64,000 nt of DNA from Candidatus Poribacteria bacterium (GTDB lineage: Bacteria > Poribacteria > WGA-4E > WGA-3G), in the NCBI GenBank assembly GCA_963665235.2, contig CAXXLX010000001.1, positions 1,056,001 to 1,120,000 on the forward strand, in the 5' to 3' direction. Shown here in pieces: positions 2,989-25,688 of the stretch. The notes beneath the pieces are model-generated. The model was not told the origin of the DNA. It was given only the letters and a program-made list of their open reading frames with translations, and ran no database searches. How positions within the stretch are numbered: the stretch's first letter is position 1; every line of letters begins with the position of its first letter. The position numbers and the translations under genes are program-made.

Positions 2989-3969
2989 CTAATGATAGAC
3001 AACTTCGTCTAATTTCTCATCATTTTCATAGATAATTACGCGTGTTTCGCCAAAAACGCGAACCCGTTTTTGTTCCAAGTCAATCACTGTGCCGGGTGCG
3101 TAAGATTCATCGACCTCAGTGCGTTCACCGTATCCATCAATGACAACGATTCTGACATGGCGTGACAGCTCACCCTCTTCACTCACCGTGTGCTTGTGGG
3201 GTAGCAGCCTTCCGATGTTTCGAGTTTCGCCTTGAACGCCACTGACCTCAAGCAAAATGAGGTCTCCGCTTTGGACAAGGTCCCCGCCTATCGGTTTATG
3301 CGTAATGACACCCCCCACGGGGATTTTCGGGTGCGGTTTATATTGAACCTCAACATGGAGCCCACCCTCTTCAAGTGCCGACACAACATCATCTATAGGT
3401 TGATTCTGAAGGTTCGGCAACTGAATGTACCGGGGCCGTGTTCCAAGACTCATCAATAGGTTAATAGAGCTTCGACGGCGTTTCCTGCTACCTTCTCCTG
3501 GCGTTTGAGCGATGACAGTATCCGGCGGATAACTTCCCGAGTGGACATAAGCCACCCGATTCGGCGTAAAACCAGCAGTTCGCAGGGTATCATACGCTGC
3601 ATCCTTTGATTTCCCTATCACAGACGGCACCAGAATCAACTCGGTGCCAATACTCACCGTGATTTCAACCGGTTGATACGCTTTGATTCTAGTCCCTGAT
3701 GGCGGTTTTTGTGAAACAATGTGTCCCTTCGGGATGTCCCCACTACTTTGCAGCTGAATTGGGGCCGCAATTTGAAGTCCAGCCTCATCAAGGCTTCGGA
3801 CAGCAGCGGGATACTCCATACCGAGCAGGTTCGGGGTCGGCACCTCGGGGCTCTTAATCCATTGCGGAATAATAACGAAGACCATTAGCAAGCCGATTAT
3901 CCCCACCAAAGTCAGACAGTACAAAATAACCTTAATAGTCGCCCACAAGGTTTTATTTACTACGTTCAT
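2989..3969 (-). CDS. Membrane-anchored PASTA-domain protein (three PASTA repeats)
   Basis: N-terminal TM helix, repeated P(N/S)(L/V)xG...V(I/V)xQxP...VS(L/I)G units; typical fmt-PASTA-rpe context. Confidence 0.85.
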   Translation of the reverse strand: MNVVNKTLWATIKVILYCLTLVGIIGLLMVFVIIPQWIKSPEVPTPNLLGMEYPAAVRSLDEAGLQIAAPIQLQSSGDIPKGHIVSQKPPSGTRIKAYQPVEITVSIGTELILVPSVIGKSKDAAYDTLRTAGFTPNRVAYVHSGSYPPDTVIAQTPGEGSRKRRRSSINLLMSLGTRPRYIQLPNLQNQPIDDVVSALEEGGLHVEVQYKPHPKIPVGGVITHKPIGGDLVQSGDLILLEVSGVQGETRNIGRLLPHKHTVSEEGELSRHVRIVVIDGYGERTEVDESYAPGTVIDLEQKRVRVFGETRVIIYENDEKLDEVVYH

Positions 3970-3976
3970 CTTGTTT

Positions 3977-4130
3977 CCGATGATATTAACCTATATATTG
4001 AAGAGCAGGCTTGTAGCCTGAAGCCTGTGCAATACTATGTATTTCACATCTTATACGGTTTGCAAGTTGCTTATAGAAAGCAACCAGGGTTCATCTACCA
4101 AAGCACGCAGAAAAATCCCGCGTGCGCCGT
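3977..4130 (-). ncRNA. Putative omegaRNA/reRNA scaffold of IS607 copy 1
   Basis: Non-coding right end conserved between both copies with a variable hairpin; location expected for TnpB guide RNAs; 5' boundary is a guess. Confidence 0.55.
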
Positions 4131-5637
4131 TCAAATCTCTGTCCATCTTGAGTCCTGTGCTATCTTTGATAACTTTAGCACCACCTAAGTTTTTGACAAT
4201 CTCACCTGTCCACGACACGGTTTTTGATGTGTATGCTTCGTTAACATCTACCACGATACATCCAGTTTCTTTCGCTTTATGCTTTAGAAACTGTTTAAAA
4301 CGGTAATGGGAGAGGGTCAACATTTGGCGGACGGTTTTCTTATGGAGTTTGCGTCCACTTTTACAAGTCTTATGAGAAGTCTCAAAAGTGGGGAGCAAGA
4401 TAATATCAAAGTTGTCGACAAGCCACCGTGCAACTTTCTTATGAAGTTCATCCACAAGGTTTCTAATCCGTTTTCTGATACGATTTGCGGCACGTCTCAT
4501 GTTCTTCTTTGCCTGTTGCTTAGTTGCTTTAGTCGCACGGGAGAGTAGGTCGTCAAGATATGAACAAAGTCTTTGAATACGATTGATTGCATGGTGTCCG
4601 AGCCATCCGAACCCATGTTCATGAAAATATGTCAGGAATGTCCTAACACCGGGGTCAAGTGCGACGACACGTCCGTTTGGTTTTCGCTTTCGTATCGTCA
4701 CACTATAACTGACACACAAATAATAGTGTGCGCCATCTTTGACCAAGCGGGAGTCTTTGATGTTTTCAGGGAGACGCTCACTCAGTCTAAGTTTTCCTAA
4801 TTTTGTGTGATAGACACCCTTTTCAGATATGGCAGCTTTGGGTATAAAGATGCTATCTGAAGGGGTTCGTTTAGATTTAAAAGAAACAGATTGAAACTGT
4901 CCTGTTTTCTGACATTTCTGCTTCGCTGCGCGAACGGCAAGACAAGCATCCCGAATAGCAACTGACTTAATTTGATATGGAACAGGTTTAGCCCAATCGG
5001 GTAAATCGTCAAGGATACCTGTCTTAATCGCTATCCAGTTCGCTTGTGTGTCCGTGTCATTCAACAAAGCAACCGTTTTGTTGTAGGTCCAACGTGCTGT
5101 GCCTATCCATTGACGCAGCGTCTCACGTTGTTCGGTTGTTGGATAAACTCTTATCTTCTTTGATTTGGTCACGGTAACTGCGGAGGCCGTGTAGTCTGCG
5201 ACTGAAGACGTGCAGGATGGCGAGAAGATCCGACGTGAGTTCTTCTTGTGGACTGTGTTCTGTTTGGTCAAGAACCACGAGTTCGCCACCGTTTTGTTCA
5301 ACGAGGTATCGTATAAGGTCGATACCGAAACGGGCGAGTCTGTCCCGATGGGCAATAACAACTTCGAGCTTATCACCTTGCATAAGCCTGTCCAATAAGG
5401 TTCTAAACCCTTTTCTTTTGAAGTTAAGGCCACTTCCGATGTCTCTGATGATTTCTGCTTCGGGGTAGATACTTCGCATATATGCGACTTGTCGTTCAAG
5501 GTCATCTCTTTGCTTGGTGCTTGACACCCGGCAATAGCAAACAGTGGTAACTGATTTGGATTTGCTTTTGATGTATCCATCAACATCGTAGCGTCTATGC
5601 CCGCCTCCTGTGCGGATAATATCAATCTTTCCTTCAT
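4051..5637 (-). CDS. tnpB: IS607 TnpB, Fanzor2-like, with long N-terminal extension overlapping tnpA
   Basis: RuvC-I ALDPG, IILLPTFET (P at canonical E), VNEAYTSKT, DRDLNGARGI; GGAG 8 nt before the ATG at 5637. Confidence 0.9.
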   Translation of the reverse strand: MKERLILSAQEAGIDATMLMDTSKANPNQLPLFAIAGCQAPSKEMTLNDKSHICEVSTPKQKSSETSEVALTSKEKGLEPYWTGLCKVISSKLLLPIGTDSPVSVSTLYDTSLNKTVANSWFLTKQNTVHKKNSRRIFSPSCTSSVADYTASAVTVTKSKKIRVYPTTEQRETLRQWIGTARWTYNKTVALLNDTDTQANWIAIKTGILDDLPDWAKPVPYQIKSVAIRDACLAVRAAKQKCQKTGQFQSVSFKSKRTPSDSIFIPKAAISEKGVYHTKLGKLRLSERLPENIKDSRLVKDGAHYYLCVSYSVTIRKRKPNGRVVALDPGVRTFLTYFHEHGFGWLGHHAINRIQRLCSYLDDLLSRATKATKQQAKKNMRRAANRIRKRIRNLVDELHKKVARWLVDNFDIILLPTFETSHKTCKSGRKLHKKTVRQMLTLSHYRFKQFLKHKAKETGCIVVDVNEAYTSKTVSWTGEIVKNLGGAKVIKDSTGLKMDRDLNGARGIFLRALVDEPWLLSISNLQTV

Positions 5638-5710
5638 TTGCTAATCTCCGTAAGTGGTCTGGGGTGTAATCCAATAGTTTGCTTGCTTTCTTTGCGGATA
5701 CATAAGTCAT
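5123..5710 (-). CDS. tnpA: IS607 serine recombinase transposase
   Basis: MerR-like HTH then YCRVSS..Q.DDLERQ, DIGSGLNFKRKG, HRDRLARFG, EEL.SDLLAILHVFS. Confidence 0.93.
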   Translation of the reverse strand: MTYVSAKKASKLLDYTPDHLRRLANEGKIDIIRTGGGHRRYDVDGYIKSKSKSVTTVCYCRVSSTKQRDDLERQVAYMRSIYPEAEIIRDIGSGLNFKRKGFRTLLDRLMQGDKLEVVIAHRDRLARFGIDLIRYLVEQNGGELVVLDQTEHSPQEELTSDLLAILHVFSRRLHGLRSYRDQIKEDKSLSNNRTT

Positions 5711-5716
5711 GTATAT

Positions 5717-5745
5717 ATTATAACACATTTTTACCGAAATGTCAA
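5717..5745 (-). promoter_or_regulatory. Sigma70-type promoter in IS607 left end
   Basis: TTGACA-17 nt-TATAAT; ATG 6 nt after the -10 box. Confidence 0.75.
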
Positions 5746-5785
5746 GAAAAACATAGATTTTTTGCTACTGTTAATCAACCTCGCG

Positions 5786-6727
5786 CTAACCAAAACTTTC
5801 CCCAGTTTTGACGTGATATCCGTTAATAAAATCGCCTATTTCCATAACTTTTTTTGTAGCAGGTTGAACCTGTAAGAGTTGGAGTAAACCTTCCCCAGTA
5901 GCAACAAGCAGCTCTCGCTGCGGTGTAATTTTCAATGTCCCGGGGGCCCCTGTGAAGTCTGTTCCCTGTGGATACGGTATACTTCGGATAATTTTGAGCG
6001 GGCGGTCGTCTCGAAAAAAGGTGTAAGCCCCTGGCCACATAGCAGTGCCTCGGATGAGATTGTGAATCGCGGTTGCCGAATCATCCCAATTGATACGTCC
6101 GGTCTCCTTTGTCAGACGCGGGGCATGGGTCGCCTCGGCGTGATTTTGGGGTGTTGCAGATGGGGGGGCACCGGGCGGTAAGTCTGATAACAGTGCCGCC
6201 AATTGACGTGCACCGATGCATGCAAGTTTGTCCATCAACGTCTCCACTGTTTCTGCAGCACAAATCGGAAACCGTTCTGCACAGATAATATCGCCTGTAT
6301 CCTCACCCGCATCTAGTAGCATCAGCGTTACACCGGTTTCTGTTTCACCGTTAATCAGTGCCCACTGAACCGGGGCTGCGCCCCGGTACTTCGGCAACAA
6401 CGATGGATGTAGGTTGATAGTCCCGCATGGCGGTATATCCAAAACAGCTTGCGGGAGAATCTGACCGAAGGCAGCGACAACAGTCACATCCGGTGCAAGC
6501 TGTTTAAGGGTGTTTATGAAATCGGGCTGTCTCACCTTTTCCGGTTGATACACCGGCAAATTGTGTTCCGTAGCGACCCTTTTCACGGCCGATGGGGTTA
6601 AACGTTTTCCGCGTCCCTTCGGCCGGTCCGGTTGCGTGACAACCCCGATAATTTCAAACTTATTAGAGATAAGTCCTGTTAGCGCGGGGACAGCAAATTC
6701 GCTAGTGCCCATAAAAAGAATTCGCAC
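5786..6727 (-). CDS. fmt: Methionyl-tRNA formyltransferase
   Basis: MRILFMGT, VVTQPDRPKGRG, NLHPSLLPKYRGAAP, DTGDI. Confidence 0.96.
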   Translation of the reverse strand: MRILFMGTSEFAVPALTGLISNKFEIIGVVTQPDRPKGRGKRLTPSAVKRVATEHNLPVYQPEKVRQPDFINTLKQLAPDVTVVAAFGQILPQAVLDIPPCGTINLHPSLLPKYRGAAPVQWALINGETETGVTLMLLDAGEDTGDIICAERFPICAAETVETLMDKLACIGARQLAALLSDLPPGAPPSATPQNHAEATHAPRLTKETGRINWDDSATAIHNLIRGTAMWPGAYTFFRDDRPLKIIRSIPYPQGTDFTGAPGTLKITPQRELLVATGEGLLQLLQVQPATKKVMEIGDFINGYHVKTGESFG

Positions 6728-22012: not shown

Positions 22013-23878
22013 TTAAGGCTCAAATTCCCAAAAAAGAATAGTACCGTCCCAACTCCCACTAACTATAGTGTTCCCATCAGGACTAAACGACACGCTACTG
22101 ACATCACCCGTATGTCCTTTGAGTGTTTCGATAAGTTGCCTTGTGCTTAGGTTCCATAGACGAATAGTTTTGTCCACGCTCCCGCTAACTATCGTATTCC
22201 CATCCGGACTAAACGACACACTATTGACCGGACCCGTATGTCCTTTGAGTGTTTCGATAAGTTGCCCTGTGCTTGTGTGCCATAGCCGAATAGTCCAGTC
22301 CCCACCCCCACTAACAAGTATACGAGCATTCAAACTAAAAAAGGACACGCCATTGACCGGACCCGTATGTCCCATGAGTGTTCTGATAAGGTGTCCGGTG
22401 CCCGTGTCCCATAGACCAATAGTCCTGTCCGAACTCCCACTAACTATCGTCCTACCATCTGGACTAAACGATACACTAGTGACATCACCCATATCTCCTT
22501 CGAGTGTTTTGATAAGGTGTCCTGTTATAGCGTCCCACAGACGAATAGTATTGTCATCGCCCCCACTAACTATCGTCCTACCATCCGGACTAAACGATAC
22601 GCTACTGACATCACCCCCATGTCCTTCGAGTGTTTTGATAAGGTGTCCTGTTGTAGCGTCCCACAGACGAATAGTATTGTCATCGCCCCCACTAACTATC
22701 GTCCTACCATCCGGACTAAACGATACGCTAGCGACATCACCCATATCTCCTTCGAGTGTTTTGATAAGGTGTCCTGTTATAGCGTCCCACAGACGAATAG
22801 TATTGTCATCACCCCCACTAACTATCGTCCTACCATCCGGACTAAACGATACGCTTTCAACCCACCCTGTATGTCCTTCGAGTGTTCTGATAAGTTGTCC
22901 TGTGCTAACGTCCCATAGACGAATAGTATTGTCATCACCCCCACTAACTATCGTCCTACCATCCGGACTAAACGATACGTTATAGACACGCCTTGTATCT
23001 TCTGGGAGTGTTCTGATAATTTGTCCTGTGCTAACGTCCCATAGACAAATAGTATTGCCATCACCCCCACTAACTATCGTCCTACCATCCGGACTAAACG
23101 ATACGCTTTCGACCCACCTTGTATGTCCCGTGAGTGTTTTGATAAGTTTTCCTGTGTTCGTATCCCATAGACGAATAGTCTTGCCATCACCCCCACTAAC
23201 TATCGTCCTACCATCCGGACTAAACGATACGCTTTCGACCCACCTTGTATGTCCCGTGAGTGTTTTGATAAGTTTTCCTGTGTTCGTATCCCACAGTTGG
23301 ATAGGATTGTTATAACTCCCACTAACGATACTAACGATAGTATTCCCATCTGGACTAAACGACACGCTAATAACCAACTTCGGATCTCCCGTGAGTGTTC
23401 TGATAAGTTCTCCTGTCCTAATGTCCCATAGACCAATAGTTTTGTCCATACTCCCACTAACTACGGTGTTACCATCCGGACTAAACGACACACTAGTGAC
23501 ATCACCGGTATGTCCTGTAAGCACTCTGATAGGCTTTCCAGTATTTGTGTCCCATAGACGAATAGTCTTGTCATCACCCCCACTAACGATAGTATTCCCA
23601 TCTGGACTAAAAGACACGCTATTGACCGGCCCTGTATGTCCTGTAAATAGGTTAAGTTCTTCCCCTGTCTGAACATCATAAATCCAAATCCCGATACTAC
23701 CACCAACAGCTAACCGCGTGCCATCTGGTGAAAACCGTATCTCATTTATAGAACCTTTACCAAGACGGACTTTCGCCCCCTTTGGTAAGTTCCATTGTGT
23801 ATAGTCTACAGCGAAAATGTTTGGGGTAACCATTAGGAGCACAAACAAAATCGTTAGCATCAAAAACATAGTTCGCAT
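22013..23878 (-). CDS. Secreted WD40 repeat protein (about 14 repeats)
   Basis: Signal peptide, LPKGAKVRLGKG lead-in, tandem GH...V.SVSFSPDG.TIVSG..D.TIRLWD units on 126-bp DNA repeats. Confidence 0.95.
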   Translation of the reverse strand: MRTMFLMLTILFVLLMVTPNIFAVDYTQWNLPKGAKVRLGKGSINEIRFSPDGTRLAVGGSIGIWIYDVQTGEELNLFTGHTGPVNSVSFSPDGNTIVSGGDDKTIRLWDTNTGKPIRVLTGHTGDVTSVSFSPDGNTVVSGSMDKTIGLWDIRTGELIRTLTGDPKLVISVSFSPDGNTIVSIVSGSYNNPIQLWDTNTGKLIKTLTGHTRWVESVSFSPDGRTIVSGGDGKTIRLWDTNTGKLIKTLTGHTRWVESVSFSPDGRTIVSGGDGNTICLWDVSTGQIIRTLPEDTRRVYNVSFSPDGRTIVSGGDDNTIRLWDVSTGQLIRTLEGHTGWVESVSFSPDGRTIVSGGDDNTIRLWDAITGHLIKTLEGDMGDVASVSFSPDGRTIVSGGDDNTIRLWDATTGHLIKTLEGHGGDVSSVSFSPDGRTIVSGGDDNTIRLWDAITGHLIKTLEGDMGDVTSVSFSPDGRTIVSGSSDRTIGLWDTGTGHLIRTLMGHTGPVNGVSFFSLNARILVSGGGDWTIRLWHTSTGQLIETLKGHTGPVNSVSFSPDGNTIVSGSVDKTIRLWNLSTRQLIETLKGHTGDVSSVSFSPDGNTIVSGSWDGTILFWEFEP

Positions 23879-23935
23879 CAGGTTGCCGATGATATTAACC
23901 TATCTATTTCCGTGGAATACTATGTATTTCACATC

Positions 23936-25519
23936 TTAGACGGTTTGCAAGTTGCTTATAGAAAGCAACCAGGGTTCATCTACCAAAGCACGCAGAAATA
24001 TCCCGCGTGCGCCGTTCAAATCTCTGTCCATCGTCCGACCTGCGCCATCTTTGATAACTTTAGCACCGCCTAAGTTTTTGACAATCTCACCTGTCCACGA
24101 CACGGTTTTTGATGTATACGCTTCACAAACATCTACCACAAGACACCCCGTTTCTTTTGCTTTATGCTTAAGGAACTGTTTGAAACGGTAATGAGAGAGG
24201 GTCAGCATTTGGCGTGCGGTTTTCTTATGGAGTTTGCGTCCACTTTTGCACGTCATTTGAGAAGTCTCAAAAGTGGGGAGTAAGATGATATCAAAGTTAT
24301 CTACAAGCCAGCGTGCGACTTTCTTATGAAGTTCATCAATAAGATTGCGTATTTTGCGGCGAAGCCGTTTTGCTGCGTTTCGCATATTGCGGCGTTGTGG
24401 GCGTTTTGCTTTTGCAGCCCGGCTGAGTAGGTCGTCGAGATATGAACAAAGTCGTTGGATTTTATTGATAGCGTGGTGTCCAAGCCAGCCGAAGCCATCT
24501 TCACAAAAATAGGTGAGAAACGTTCTGATACCGGGGTCAAGTGCGACAACACGCCCGCTTGGTTCTCGCTTTCGTATCGTCACACTATAACTGACACACA
24601 AATAGTAGTGTGTGCCCTCTTTGACTAAGCGGGAGTCTTTGATATTTTCAGGGAGACGCTCACTGAGTCTAAGTTTTCCTAACTTTGTGTGATAGACACC
24701 CTTTTCAGATATGGCACCTTTGGGTATAAAGATAGACTGTTTATCGTTTTTCCGACTACGGAACTTCACGCATTGAAATGTGCTTCTCTGCTGATAGTCT
24801 ATTTTCGCGTTCTGGACAGCTTGACAGGCATCCCGAATAGCAACTGACTTGACTTGATAAGGAACAGCCTTCGCCCAATCGGGTAAGTCGTCAAGGATAC
24901 CTGTCTTAATCGCCATCCAGTTCGCTTTTGTCTCAGGCTGACGCAAATAGTCAATCGCTTTGTTATAGACAAAACGAGATGTGCCTATCCATTGACGCAG
25001 CGTCTCACGCTGTTCCGGTGTCGGATAGACTCTTATCTTCTTTGATTTTGTTACGGTAACTTCGGAGTCCGCGCAGTCTGCAACTGAAGACAGGCAGGAT
25101 TGCGAGAAGATTGGATGTGAGGTCTTCTTGTCGACTGTGTTCTGTTTGGTCAAAAACCACGAGTTCGCCAACGTTTTGTTCAATGAGGTATCGAATAAGG
25201 GCGATACTGAACCGGGCGAGACGAGCCCGATGGGCAATAACAACCTAGAGCTTATCACCTTGCATAAGCCGGTCCAATAAGGTTCTAACCCCTTTTCTTT
25301 TGAATTTGAGACCACTACCGATGTCTCTAATGATTTCTGCTTCGGGGTAGATACTTCGCATATACGCGACTTGTCGTTCAAGGGCATCTCTTTGGTTTGG
25401 GCTGGACACCCTGCAATAGCAAAGAGTGGTCCTTGGTTTTGATTTGCTTTTGATGGACCCATCAACATCATAGCGTCCATGTCCGCCTCCTGTGCGGGTT
25501 GTCCCAATCTTTCCTTCAT
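23936..25519 (-). CDS. tnpB: IS607 TnpB, Fanzor2-like, long N-terminus
   Basis: ALDPG, IILLPTFET, VCEAYTSKT, DRDLNGARGI; AAGGAG 8 nt before the ATG. Confidence 0.9.
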   Translation of the reverse strand: MKERLGQPAQEADMDAMMLMGPSKANQNQGPLFAIAGCPAQTKEMPLNDKSRICEVSTPKQKSLETSVVVSNSKEKGLEPYWTGLCKVISSRLLLPIGLVSPGSVSPLFDTSLNKTLANSWFLTKQNTVDKKTSHPIFSQSCLSSVADCADSEVTVTKSKKIRVYPTPEQRETLRQWIGTSRFVYNKAIDYLRQPETKANWMAIKTGILDDLPDWAKAVPYQVKSVAIRDACQAVQNAKIDYQQRSTFQCVKFRSRKNDKQSIFIPKGAISEKGVYHTKLGKLRLSERLPENIKDSRLVKEGTHYYLCVSYSVTIRKREPSGRVVALDPGIRTFLTYFCEDGFGWLGHHAINKIQRLCSYLDDLLSRAAKAKRPQRRNMRNAAKRLRRKIRNLIDELHKKVARWLVDNFDIILLPTFETSQMTCKSGRKLHKKTARQMLTLSHYRFKQFLKHKAKETGCLVVDVCEAYTSKTVSWTGEIVKNLGGAKVIKDGAGRTMDRDLNGARGIFLRALVDEPWLLSISNLQTV

Positions 25520-25593
25520 TTGCTAATCTCCTTAAGTGATTCGGGGTCCAATCCAGCATTTCCGATGCTGGACGGCGCGGATACATAAGTCAT
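25005..25593 (-). pseudogene. tnpA: IS607 tnpA pseudogene
   Basis: Frameshift a few codons after ATGACTTATGTATCC and premature TAG at 25245 where copy 1 has GAA; 3' end approximate. Confidence 0.85.
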
Positions 25594-25688
25594 ATATATT
25601 GTAACACAAATATATTGAAATGTCAAGAAAAATATAGATTTTATGCTACTGTTCCGCAACCTCCTTCTGTTTAGTCCAGCATGGACGA

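Follow-up and report, generated by a model that had tools for sequence, protein, structure and literature searches.

The two insertion elements of the IS607 family described here lie in a 64,000-nt stretch of the genome of a Candidatus Poribacteria bacterium (assembly GCA_963665235.2, contig CAXXLX010000001.1, positions 1,056,001 to 1,120,000), referred to below as the window. Both are inserted on the minus strand at the GG of a purine-rich motif, exactly 7 nt in front of the ATG of a host gene, and both are members of an IS607-family clade whose hosts are a family of uncultured bacteria. The recombination mechanism of such elements is known. What is new is that the target of this clade is the core of the host Shine-Dalgarno (SD) sequence, with about four in ten copies so placed. 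A short target motif in A-rich DNA, together with the loss of insertions that fall within genes, probably explains this placement, to which target choice and selection may each contribute a share.

Copy 1 is 1802 nt long (3977-5778). Read along the minus strand, its left flank consists of the TAG stop codon of fmt (5786-5788), CGC and then GAGG (5779-5782), after which the left end opens with TTGATTAACAGTAGC. The right end is ..TTAATATCATCGG, with its terminal GG at 3977-3978, and is followed by AAACAAG (3970-3976) and the ATG of a PASTA-domain gene (3967-3969). Copy 2 is 1774 nt long (23886-25659) and shares about 84% identity with copy 1. On the left it borders on ..AAGGAGG, with the GG at 25660-25661; its own right end is ..CATCGG, and past it lie CAACCTG (23879-23885) and the ATG of a WD40-repeat gene (23876-23878). 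The spacer from GG to host ATG is 7 nt in both cases, as the original prediction had stated and as re-reading of the flanks confirmed. The element ranges given there located both copies and took in a few flanking bases. In all 11 related loci examined, fmt is directly upstream of the PASTA gene and the PASTA protein starts with MN/MK..LN.TLFA at the aligned ATG, which indicates that this start codon is genuine.

For a census of the clade, 112 genomes of the same taxonomic family were searched with the 15-mer of the right end and with the final 204 nt of copy 1. Element ends were mapped by BLAST against the window copies, after a fixed left-end pattern had matched none of 28 relatives' loci. 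At least 74 right-end junctions were found in 19 genomes. Three degenerate right ends (L192, L193 and L217) were dropped and two orthologous duplicates merged (L071 with L069, L196 with L194), which gave 69 unique sites; L200, L201, L203 and L211 have no right end and are outside the count. A GG was present at the right end in 71 of the 74, and 70 of the 71 intact right ends read ..TCGG, the other one TTGG. Named relatives of the host fmt protein, and related loci, carry the label Candidatus Poribacteria. A metagenome scan with a 15-nt right-end pattern returned 118 stretches, none of them element-related and all chance matches.

The 5.3-Mb genome that holds the window contains eight independent insertions, six of 1.6-1.8 kb and two internally deleted derivatives (444 and 936 bp), and one duplicate locus on a short contig. 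All eight lie outside long open reading frames (ORFs). Left flanks end in RAGG in seven and in GAGGA in one, and every right end is CATCGG. The distance from GG to the next co-oriented long-ORF start is 6, 7, 7, 8, 15, 33, 37 and about 63 nt, so that four of the eight are SD-placed (offsets 6, 7, 7 and 8). The duplicate locus (C3:1735-3537, on a 34-kb contig) repeats the copy at C1:1029459-1031261 with identical flanks and represents either a second haplotype or a duplication in the assembly.

On its 5′ side the left end is bordered by a constant purine-rich motif distinct from the element's own right end, as predicted. Left flanks were mapped for 58 copies, and the 52 that end in GG gave the logo 5′-D-R-R-G-G followed by A or T. 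Positions -1 and -2 are G in 52/52, A outnumbers G by 42 to 10 at position -3 and by 29 to 23 at position -4, C occurs only once at -5, and +1 is A or T in 58/69 sites; no position outside -5 to +1 is informative. As four-base flanks these are AAGG (22), GAGG (20), AGGG (7) and GGGG (3). The proposal that the target is GAGG thus held in that the motif is the SD core, and proved too narrow, GAGG being only 20 of 52. Six flanks are outside the logo: one is GAGGA, two end in AG, and three (L205, L206 and L210) were mis-called by 13 nt and by eye end in AAGGG, GAGGG and GAAGG. The logo is identical for SD-placed and other sites, which shows that the motif belongs to the element and not to the SD sequence. 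Insertion flanks are also A-rich on the element strand: A makes up about 40% there and 29% around the non-coding RRGG sites of two relatives. As far as sequence can tell, purines at -3 and -4 in all 52 targets distinguish these from the element's own right end, which has C at -3 and T at -4. RRGG would then also be the target-adjacent motif (TAM) of the nuclease TnpB.

The exchange is scarless at a single GG. The original prediction had reconstructed uninterrupted sites by removing each window copy at its GG core; an exact empty allele was found for a 447-bp derivative in a sister genome. This allele, GAAGG/AAAACC.. (the slash marks the junction), has only one GG and shows 0 mismatches to the filled site over 40+40 nt; it equals the left flank ..ATCATGAAGG joined to the right flank AAAACC... 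Recombination at GG, as claimed earlier, was thereby verified, and it involves no duplication. For a second derivative, empty alleles were found in two genomes, AAGGGG/TAACTATG and GAGG/ATACCATG, which show that an SD sequence 5 nt before the ATG is conserved there. Terminal inverted repeats are not apparent, the two ends differing by eye (no dedicated repeat search was made), and there is no target-site duplication.

A site was scored as SD-placed when the GG was followed after 5-11 nt by a start codon (ATG, GTG or TTG) with an ORF of 60 codons or more. By this measure 30 of the 69 unique sites (43%) are SD-placed: 16/35 full-length copies, 8/23 short derivatives (miniature inverted-repeat transposable elements, MITEs) and 6/11 copies with an unmapped left end. 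The offsets are 5 nt (2 sites), 6 (2), 7 (4), 8 (11), 9 (7), 10 (1) and 11 (3), and match the natural spacing from RAGG to start codons in this genome, which peaks at 8-9 nt. Nine more sites lie 13-21 nt before a start, several of them just upstream of a stronger SD sequence.

Expected shares were computed with genes called by a simple codon-usage model (4113 genes and 83% coding in this genome). Of all RAGG sites in this genome 82% (64238/78542) are coding, and 9.6% (7503/78540) are SD-placed. The share is 14.2% (1904/13457) for non-coding RAGG sites, and 12.0% and 10.3% for those in 200-kb samples of two relatives. Against 0.142, 30/69 has a binomial P of 4e-9, and the distances from GG to ATG are not those of random sites (9.6-14.2%). 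Weighting by the -5 to +1 logo gave 14-17% and did not raise the expectation. Two further nulls came much closer to the observed share. Non-coding RAGG sites at most 150 nt upstream of a co-oriented predicted start are SD-placed in 38.4% (1402/3648), and adding the flank composition of non-SD sites (a context model trained on 27-30 non-SD insertion sites) gave 41% for non-coding sites in this genome and 28% and 33% in the two relatives. The same weighting lowered the coding share of the weighted sites from 82% to 58-72%. Special recognition of ribosome-binding sites is therefore not needed, since motif, A-rich flanks and non-coding location already predict 28-41%. In a sister clade (TnpB 52-66% identical, mostly cyanobacteria, right ends ..GTATCGG), 7 of 44 sites are SD-placed under the same criterion (Fisher P = 0.004). 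Four sister-clade copies on a named cyanobacterial chromosome (L313-L316) have identical flanks and a spacing of about 3.5 kb, indicating a putative tandemly amplified segment.

According to the explanation that we consider probable, TnpA would exchange strands at a GG shared by the element ends and the target, which would make insertion and excision scarless. The accepted target would be 5′-D-R-R-G-G followed by A or T, usually AAGG or GAGG in A-rich DNA, and would serve as the TAM as well. A guide RNA composed of the right end and about 16-20 nt of flank would spare the filled TCGG site and direct cutting of the empty RRGG site, and the cut empty site would restore the element by recombination, as is known for other IS607 elements. 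RRGG in A-rich DNA is the SD core, and this host has its SD sequences 8-9 nt before starts. Insertions within genes would be lost, so that about four in ten surviving copies would come to lie between an SD sequence and its start codon. SD-placed copies are always co-oriented with the gene, and their guides would cover the start codon.

Several points weigh against this account. The original prediction had taken the targets to be ribosome-binding sites: sites at true SD spacing are indeed enriched, and the 39 of 69 that are not SD-placed are mostly at other non-coding positions. It had also held that ORFs are avoided. Most sites are non-coding, but four copies lie convincingly inside ORFs of 179-363 aa and at most 9/58 are intragenic, so that gene avoidance is not absolute. 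The census is a lower bound, with 7-40 candidates scored per genome and the two copy-richest genomes sampled in part, and copies from related genomes are not fully independent. The coding share of 83% is probably an underestimate; too many sites are then counted as non-coding, and the null comes out too low. The excess over the context nulls is marginal (P = 0.004 for 0.28, 0.05 for 0.33 and 0.39 for 0.41), and the non-SD training sites may be like 5′ untranslated regions, in which case context is partly a proxy for proximity to gene starts. The TAM is read from flanks only, which makes choice by TnpA and retention driven by TnpB inseparable. No close empty allele was found among related genomes for either window copy; in the nearest relative, 68% identical in DNA, only synteny and the start codon are comparable at these loci. 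The TnpB lacks the zinc-finger cysteines found in its best solved match (described below), so its activity is not assured.

It is doubtful that the clade actively prefers ribosome-binding sites as landing pads, with TnpA target and TnpB TAM having converged on the host SD core. We regard as unlikely the related proposal, the main rival, that TnpA, or TnpA with TnpB, chooses translation-initiation regions by something beyond the short motif (local DNA melting, the state of transcription or translation, or a longer composite signal), the bias being present at insertion. Among young copies (those with at least 98.4% identity to a second copy of their genome), 10/22 are SD-placed, including 4/5 in a burst of five copies of at least 99.4% identity; the share is the same as in old copies. 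The bias was thus already present early, which speaks for some part played by target choice. Although 82% of RAGG sites are coding, no young site of the 22 is convincingly intragenic, the SD-placed share of the family is about threefold above the motif-only non-coding null, and the nine sites 13-21 nt before a start, just upstream of a real SD sequence, would also fit such a choice. On the other side, insertions that kill or harm the host are lost before any genome is assembled, even in the youngest burst, and such early loss is compatible with the bias of young copies. The logo is uninformative beyond -5 to +1, the spread of offsets over 5-11 nt indicates that the ATG itself is not read, and the A-rich-context null already reaches 28-41%. 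The published IS607-type TnpA proteins are described as inserting broadly at a short motif in E. coli, in the passages available (10.1101/2023.11.20.567912; PMC6188088).

Retention for a benefit to the host, in which the promoter or read-through of the element usefully alters downstream expression or TnpB and its RNA regulate the gene, appears very unlikely. The left end carries a perfect consensus promoter and no terminator-like site was found at the right end, and all SD-placed copies are co-oriented with the gene, the latter by construction of the motif. In RNA libraries of one study (four runs), contigs with 90-99% likeness span the body of the element and end at 3977 and about 5780. As they stop at the element ends and cover none of the flanks of this locus, they derive from other copies. 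At another copy, one contig in each of two runs continues for 255 nt beyond the right end. Given the promoter consensus and the lack of a terminator-like site, read-through into host genes is plausible, but the contigs may be carried-over DNA and are no proof of transcription. The genes downstream of SD-placed copies are unrelated (PASTA, WD40, an oxidoreductase-like protein of 334 aa and a 116-aa protein without Pfam match), and MITEs that have neither tnpA nor tnpB are still SD-placed in 8/23 cases. An SD-placed copy leaves the host SD sequence orphaned at its left end and puts TCGG in place of RAGG before the gene, a swap that should weaken translation. The possibility that the orphaned SD sequence drives an ORF of the element was rejected: a start is absent 5-11 nt into the left end, where many copies have TAA.

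Coincidence has a negligible probability: only two cases are seen in the window and short ATG offsets are common near GG-rich leaders, but the census (30/69 against nulls of 10-14%, P about 4e-9), an offset distribution equal to natural SD spacing and the start codon of the PASTA gene, conserved in 11 relatives, refute it.

Table 1. Features of the two IS607-family elements and of the adjoining host genes in the window.
Feature	Coordinates	Strand	Basis
IS607-family element, copy 1	3977..5778	-	End mapping
Host GAGG at copy 1 left end; putative TAM/target, GG exchange core 5779-5780; former SD sequence of the PASTA gene	5779..5782	-	Sequence and family logo
Host flank expected to be copied into the guide part of the RNA (guide length assumed about 16-20 nt); holds the 7-nt spacer and the PASTA ATG	3957..3976	-	Position suggested by published IS607 TnpB systems
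tnpA of copy 1, serine recombinase, N-terminal MerR-like helix-turn-helix (HTH) and C-terminal catalytic domain	5123..5710	-	PF00239, E 1e-19; MerR below cut-off
tnpB of copy 1, 375 aa	4051..5178	-	PF07282, PF12323, PF01385 (three Pfam families of TnpB/Cas12f-like nucleases)
Putative sigma-70-type promoter in left end: TTGACA, 17 nt, TATAAT	5717..5745	-	Consensus match only
Conserved structured 3′ region ending ..UCGG, putative omega RNA/right-end element RNA (reRNA) scaffold; overlaps the tnpB end	3977..4127	-	Predicted fold and covariation
IS607-family element, copy 2	23886..25659	-	End mapping
Host GGAGG at copy 2 left end, GG core 25660-25661	25660..25664	-	Sequence
tnpA of copy 2, pseudogene: one in-frame TAG after ..MQGDKL, altered N-terminus	25002..25586	-	Translation
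tnpB of copy 2, intact ORF; start approximate, set by homology to copy 1	23936..25063	-	Translation
Host PASTA-domain protein gene, 326 aa, three PASTA stretches, downstream of copy 1	2989..3969	-	ORF and Pfam
Host fmt (methionyl-tRNA formyltransferase), upstream of copy 1	5786..6727	-	ORF, Pfam and related loci
Host WD40-repeat gene, 621 aa, signal-peptide-like start, ATG 7 nt past copy 2 GG	22013..23878	-	ORF and Pfam

Both window elements are of the IS607 type, as had been proposed, according to the domain order of TnpA, its matches to solved IS607 TnpA structures and the Pfam families of TnpB. In copy 1 TnpA, PF00239 covers residues 57-178 and the MerR-type HTH, below its cut-off, residues 6-43; the protein matches PDB catalytic domains of the IS607-family ISC1904, ISC1926 and IS1535 TnpA with E values of 1e-29 to 3e-16. 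The tnpB gene is downstream of tnpA on the same strand, and the two overlap at 5123-5178. All 15 homologues compared (57-83% identity) share the candidate RuvC residues D175, E266 and D348 of TnpB. The protein is unlike a TldR-type nuclease-dead repressor: the candidate triad is invariant and the gene lies within a multi-copy mobile element. The best solved match of TnpB is the mimivirus TnpB-like L79 (PDB 9b0l, a Fanzor-type relative; E 7e-25), with which it shares the motifs DPG..R.FLT and DRD.N.A. Unlike L79, which is 520 aa long, encoded by a eukaryotic virus and equipped with two CxxC pairs, it has SWTG and DSTG in their place. The stretch TSKTVSWTG is invariant in the 15 homologues, and the zinc finger seems, from these alignments, to have been replaced throughout this TnpB clade. 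Upstream of the homology-based start, the tnpB frame continues without a stop for about 150 codons and crosses tnpA in another frame (4051-5637 and 23936-25519, minus strand), and many database homologues are recorded at 523-549 aa; the extension could be a habit of gene callers or a conserved overlapping extension.

The left-end promoter matches the consensus at 12/12 positions, has TG before the -10 box and ends 6 nt before the tnpA ATG, with no SD sequence in between (5708-5745, minus strand). The tnpA mRNA may accordingly be leaderless, so that an element that lands on SD sequences possibly has a transposase mRNA without a leader of its own. Copy 2 is 99.9% identical to a copy at a different locus of the same genome (C1:1045758-1047530). 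If this twin shares the in-frame stop, as the near-identity suggests, this would point to recent mobilisation in trans by the TnpA of the other subfamily.

A 74-nt tail ending in TTAATATCATCGG follows tnpB. The last ~150 nt of the element have 32 predicted pairs, 16 of them with compensatory changes among 22 copies (including MITEs of 275-447 bp), and conservation at the right end ceases exactly after the GG. We infer that a guide RNA would be made from this right end and that TnpB would be nuclease-active. An Rfam search of 3800-6000 with E up to 1 gave only a chance-level match to NsiR1 (22 bits against a gathering score of 39), and the RAGATH-18 reRNA model of Rfam had no match in the element.

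The MITEs form families of 275-277 bp and 442-447 bp and retain nothing but the left end and the structured RNA region of the right end. In two closed genomes they (L242-L253, L194-L198, L204, L212 and L214) occur as many near-identical copies, up to 100%. In the genome studied here, outside the window (C1:4311660-4313422), the derivatives of 444 and 936 bp stand in the same orientation and bracket the ORF of 116 aa, for which Pfam gave no match. The second of them has the left end GAGGA and another CATCATCGG 4 nt past its right end; a tRNA search beside this derivative (C1:4312487-4313422) found none. An unrelated repeat of about 95 bp, which one related genome has in dozens of copies, abuts the left end of a MITE on the upstream side in the sister genome (L198); it (query residues 245-347) is missing from the empty allele. 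At L046, in a related genome, a right-end-like ..GGTTAATTCTATCGG precedes the left end of a full copy by 12 nt, which suggests a possible tandem or nested insertion. The left flanks of L046 and L064 end in AG, not GG.

The mechanism outlined above has parallels among published systems, as far as described in the passages available of the papers cited here. In CboIStron of Clostridium botulinum, TGGG is both the target of TnpA and the TAM of TnpB, and UCGG closes the scaffold (10.1101/2023.11.20.567912). The present clade is like CboIStron in its serine TnpA with TnpB, a strictly required GG core, a target that equals the TAM, and a -3 position that separates self (C) from target. Unlike CboIStron, which has TGGG and a group I intron, it uses RRGG, mostly RAGG, and has no group I intron. 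The passages on CboIStron report no link to ribosome-binding sites (10.1101/2023.11.20.567912). The TnpB of ISXfa1 (Xylella) cuts at a GGG TAM and spares its own CGG (10.1101/2023.08.09.552727), and IS607 of Helicobacter pylori inserts at GG without duplication (PMC6188088). In this published work, TnpB is proposed to act as a filter on the insertion profile once TnpA has inserted promiscuously (10.1101/2023.08.09.552727; PMC6188088). Exchange at GG, the lack of target duplication and the lack of inverted repeats are shared with ISXfa1 and IS607. For these two the available passages report (G)GG and no further preference, unlike the present clade, which has purines at -3 and -4, favours A at -3 and is SD-placed in many cases.

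The closest likeness in the TAM is to ISFba1 and 22 other IS607 TnpBs with guide RNAs derived from RAGATH-18 (Cell Res 2024, PMC11061315). Their TAMs are AGGAG in 18/22 strains and GAGGG in four, and also occur beside left ends (PMC11061315). Both groups are IS607 TnpBs with a purine-rich SD-like TAM; unlike the ISFba1 class, the present element has no RAGATH-18 match and a TAM of 4-5 nt that ends in the GG core. In a word search of the main text of PMC11061315, "Shine-Dalgarno", "ribosome binding" and "insertion site" occurred 0 times. A link between IS607 or TnpB targets and ribosome-binding sites is absent from the full-text literature searched, which leaves most subscription journals outside it.

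The target of an RNA-guided transposon can thus coincide with a host signal that stands before a large share of genes, which gives the element many conserved non-coding landing sites. SD-placed copies cut genes off from their ribosome-binding sites, a point for annotation, and a compact TnpB of 375 aa with a short purine TAM is a possible editing tool. Guide RNAs that lie over start codons bear on the repeated taming of TnpB into RNA-guided regulators. If ribosome-binding sites were actively chosen, the clade would have 4-nt, gene-free, conserved sites before about a third or more of the genes of this genome, its sense-oriented copies would stand ready as precursors of RNA-guided regulators acting where translation or transcription starts, and the published IS607 elements with AGGAG and GAGGG TAMs would do likewise.

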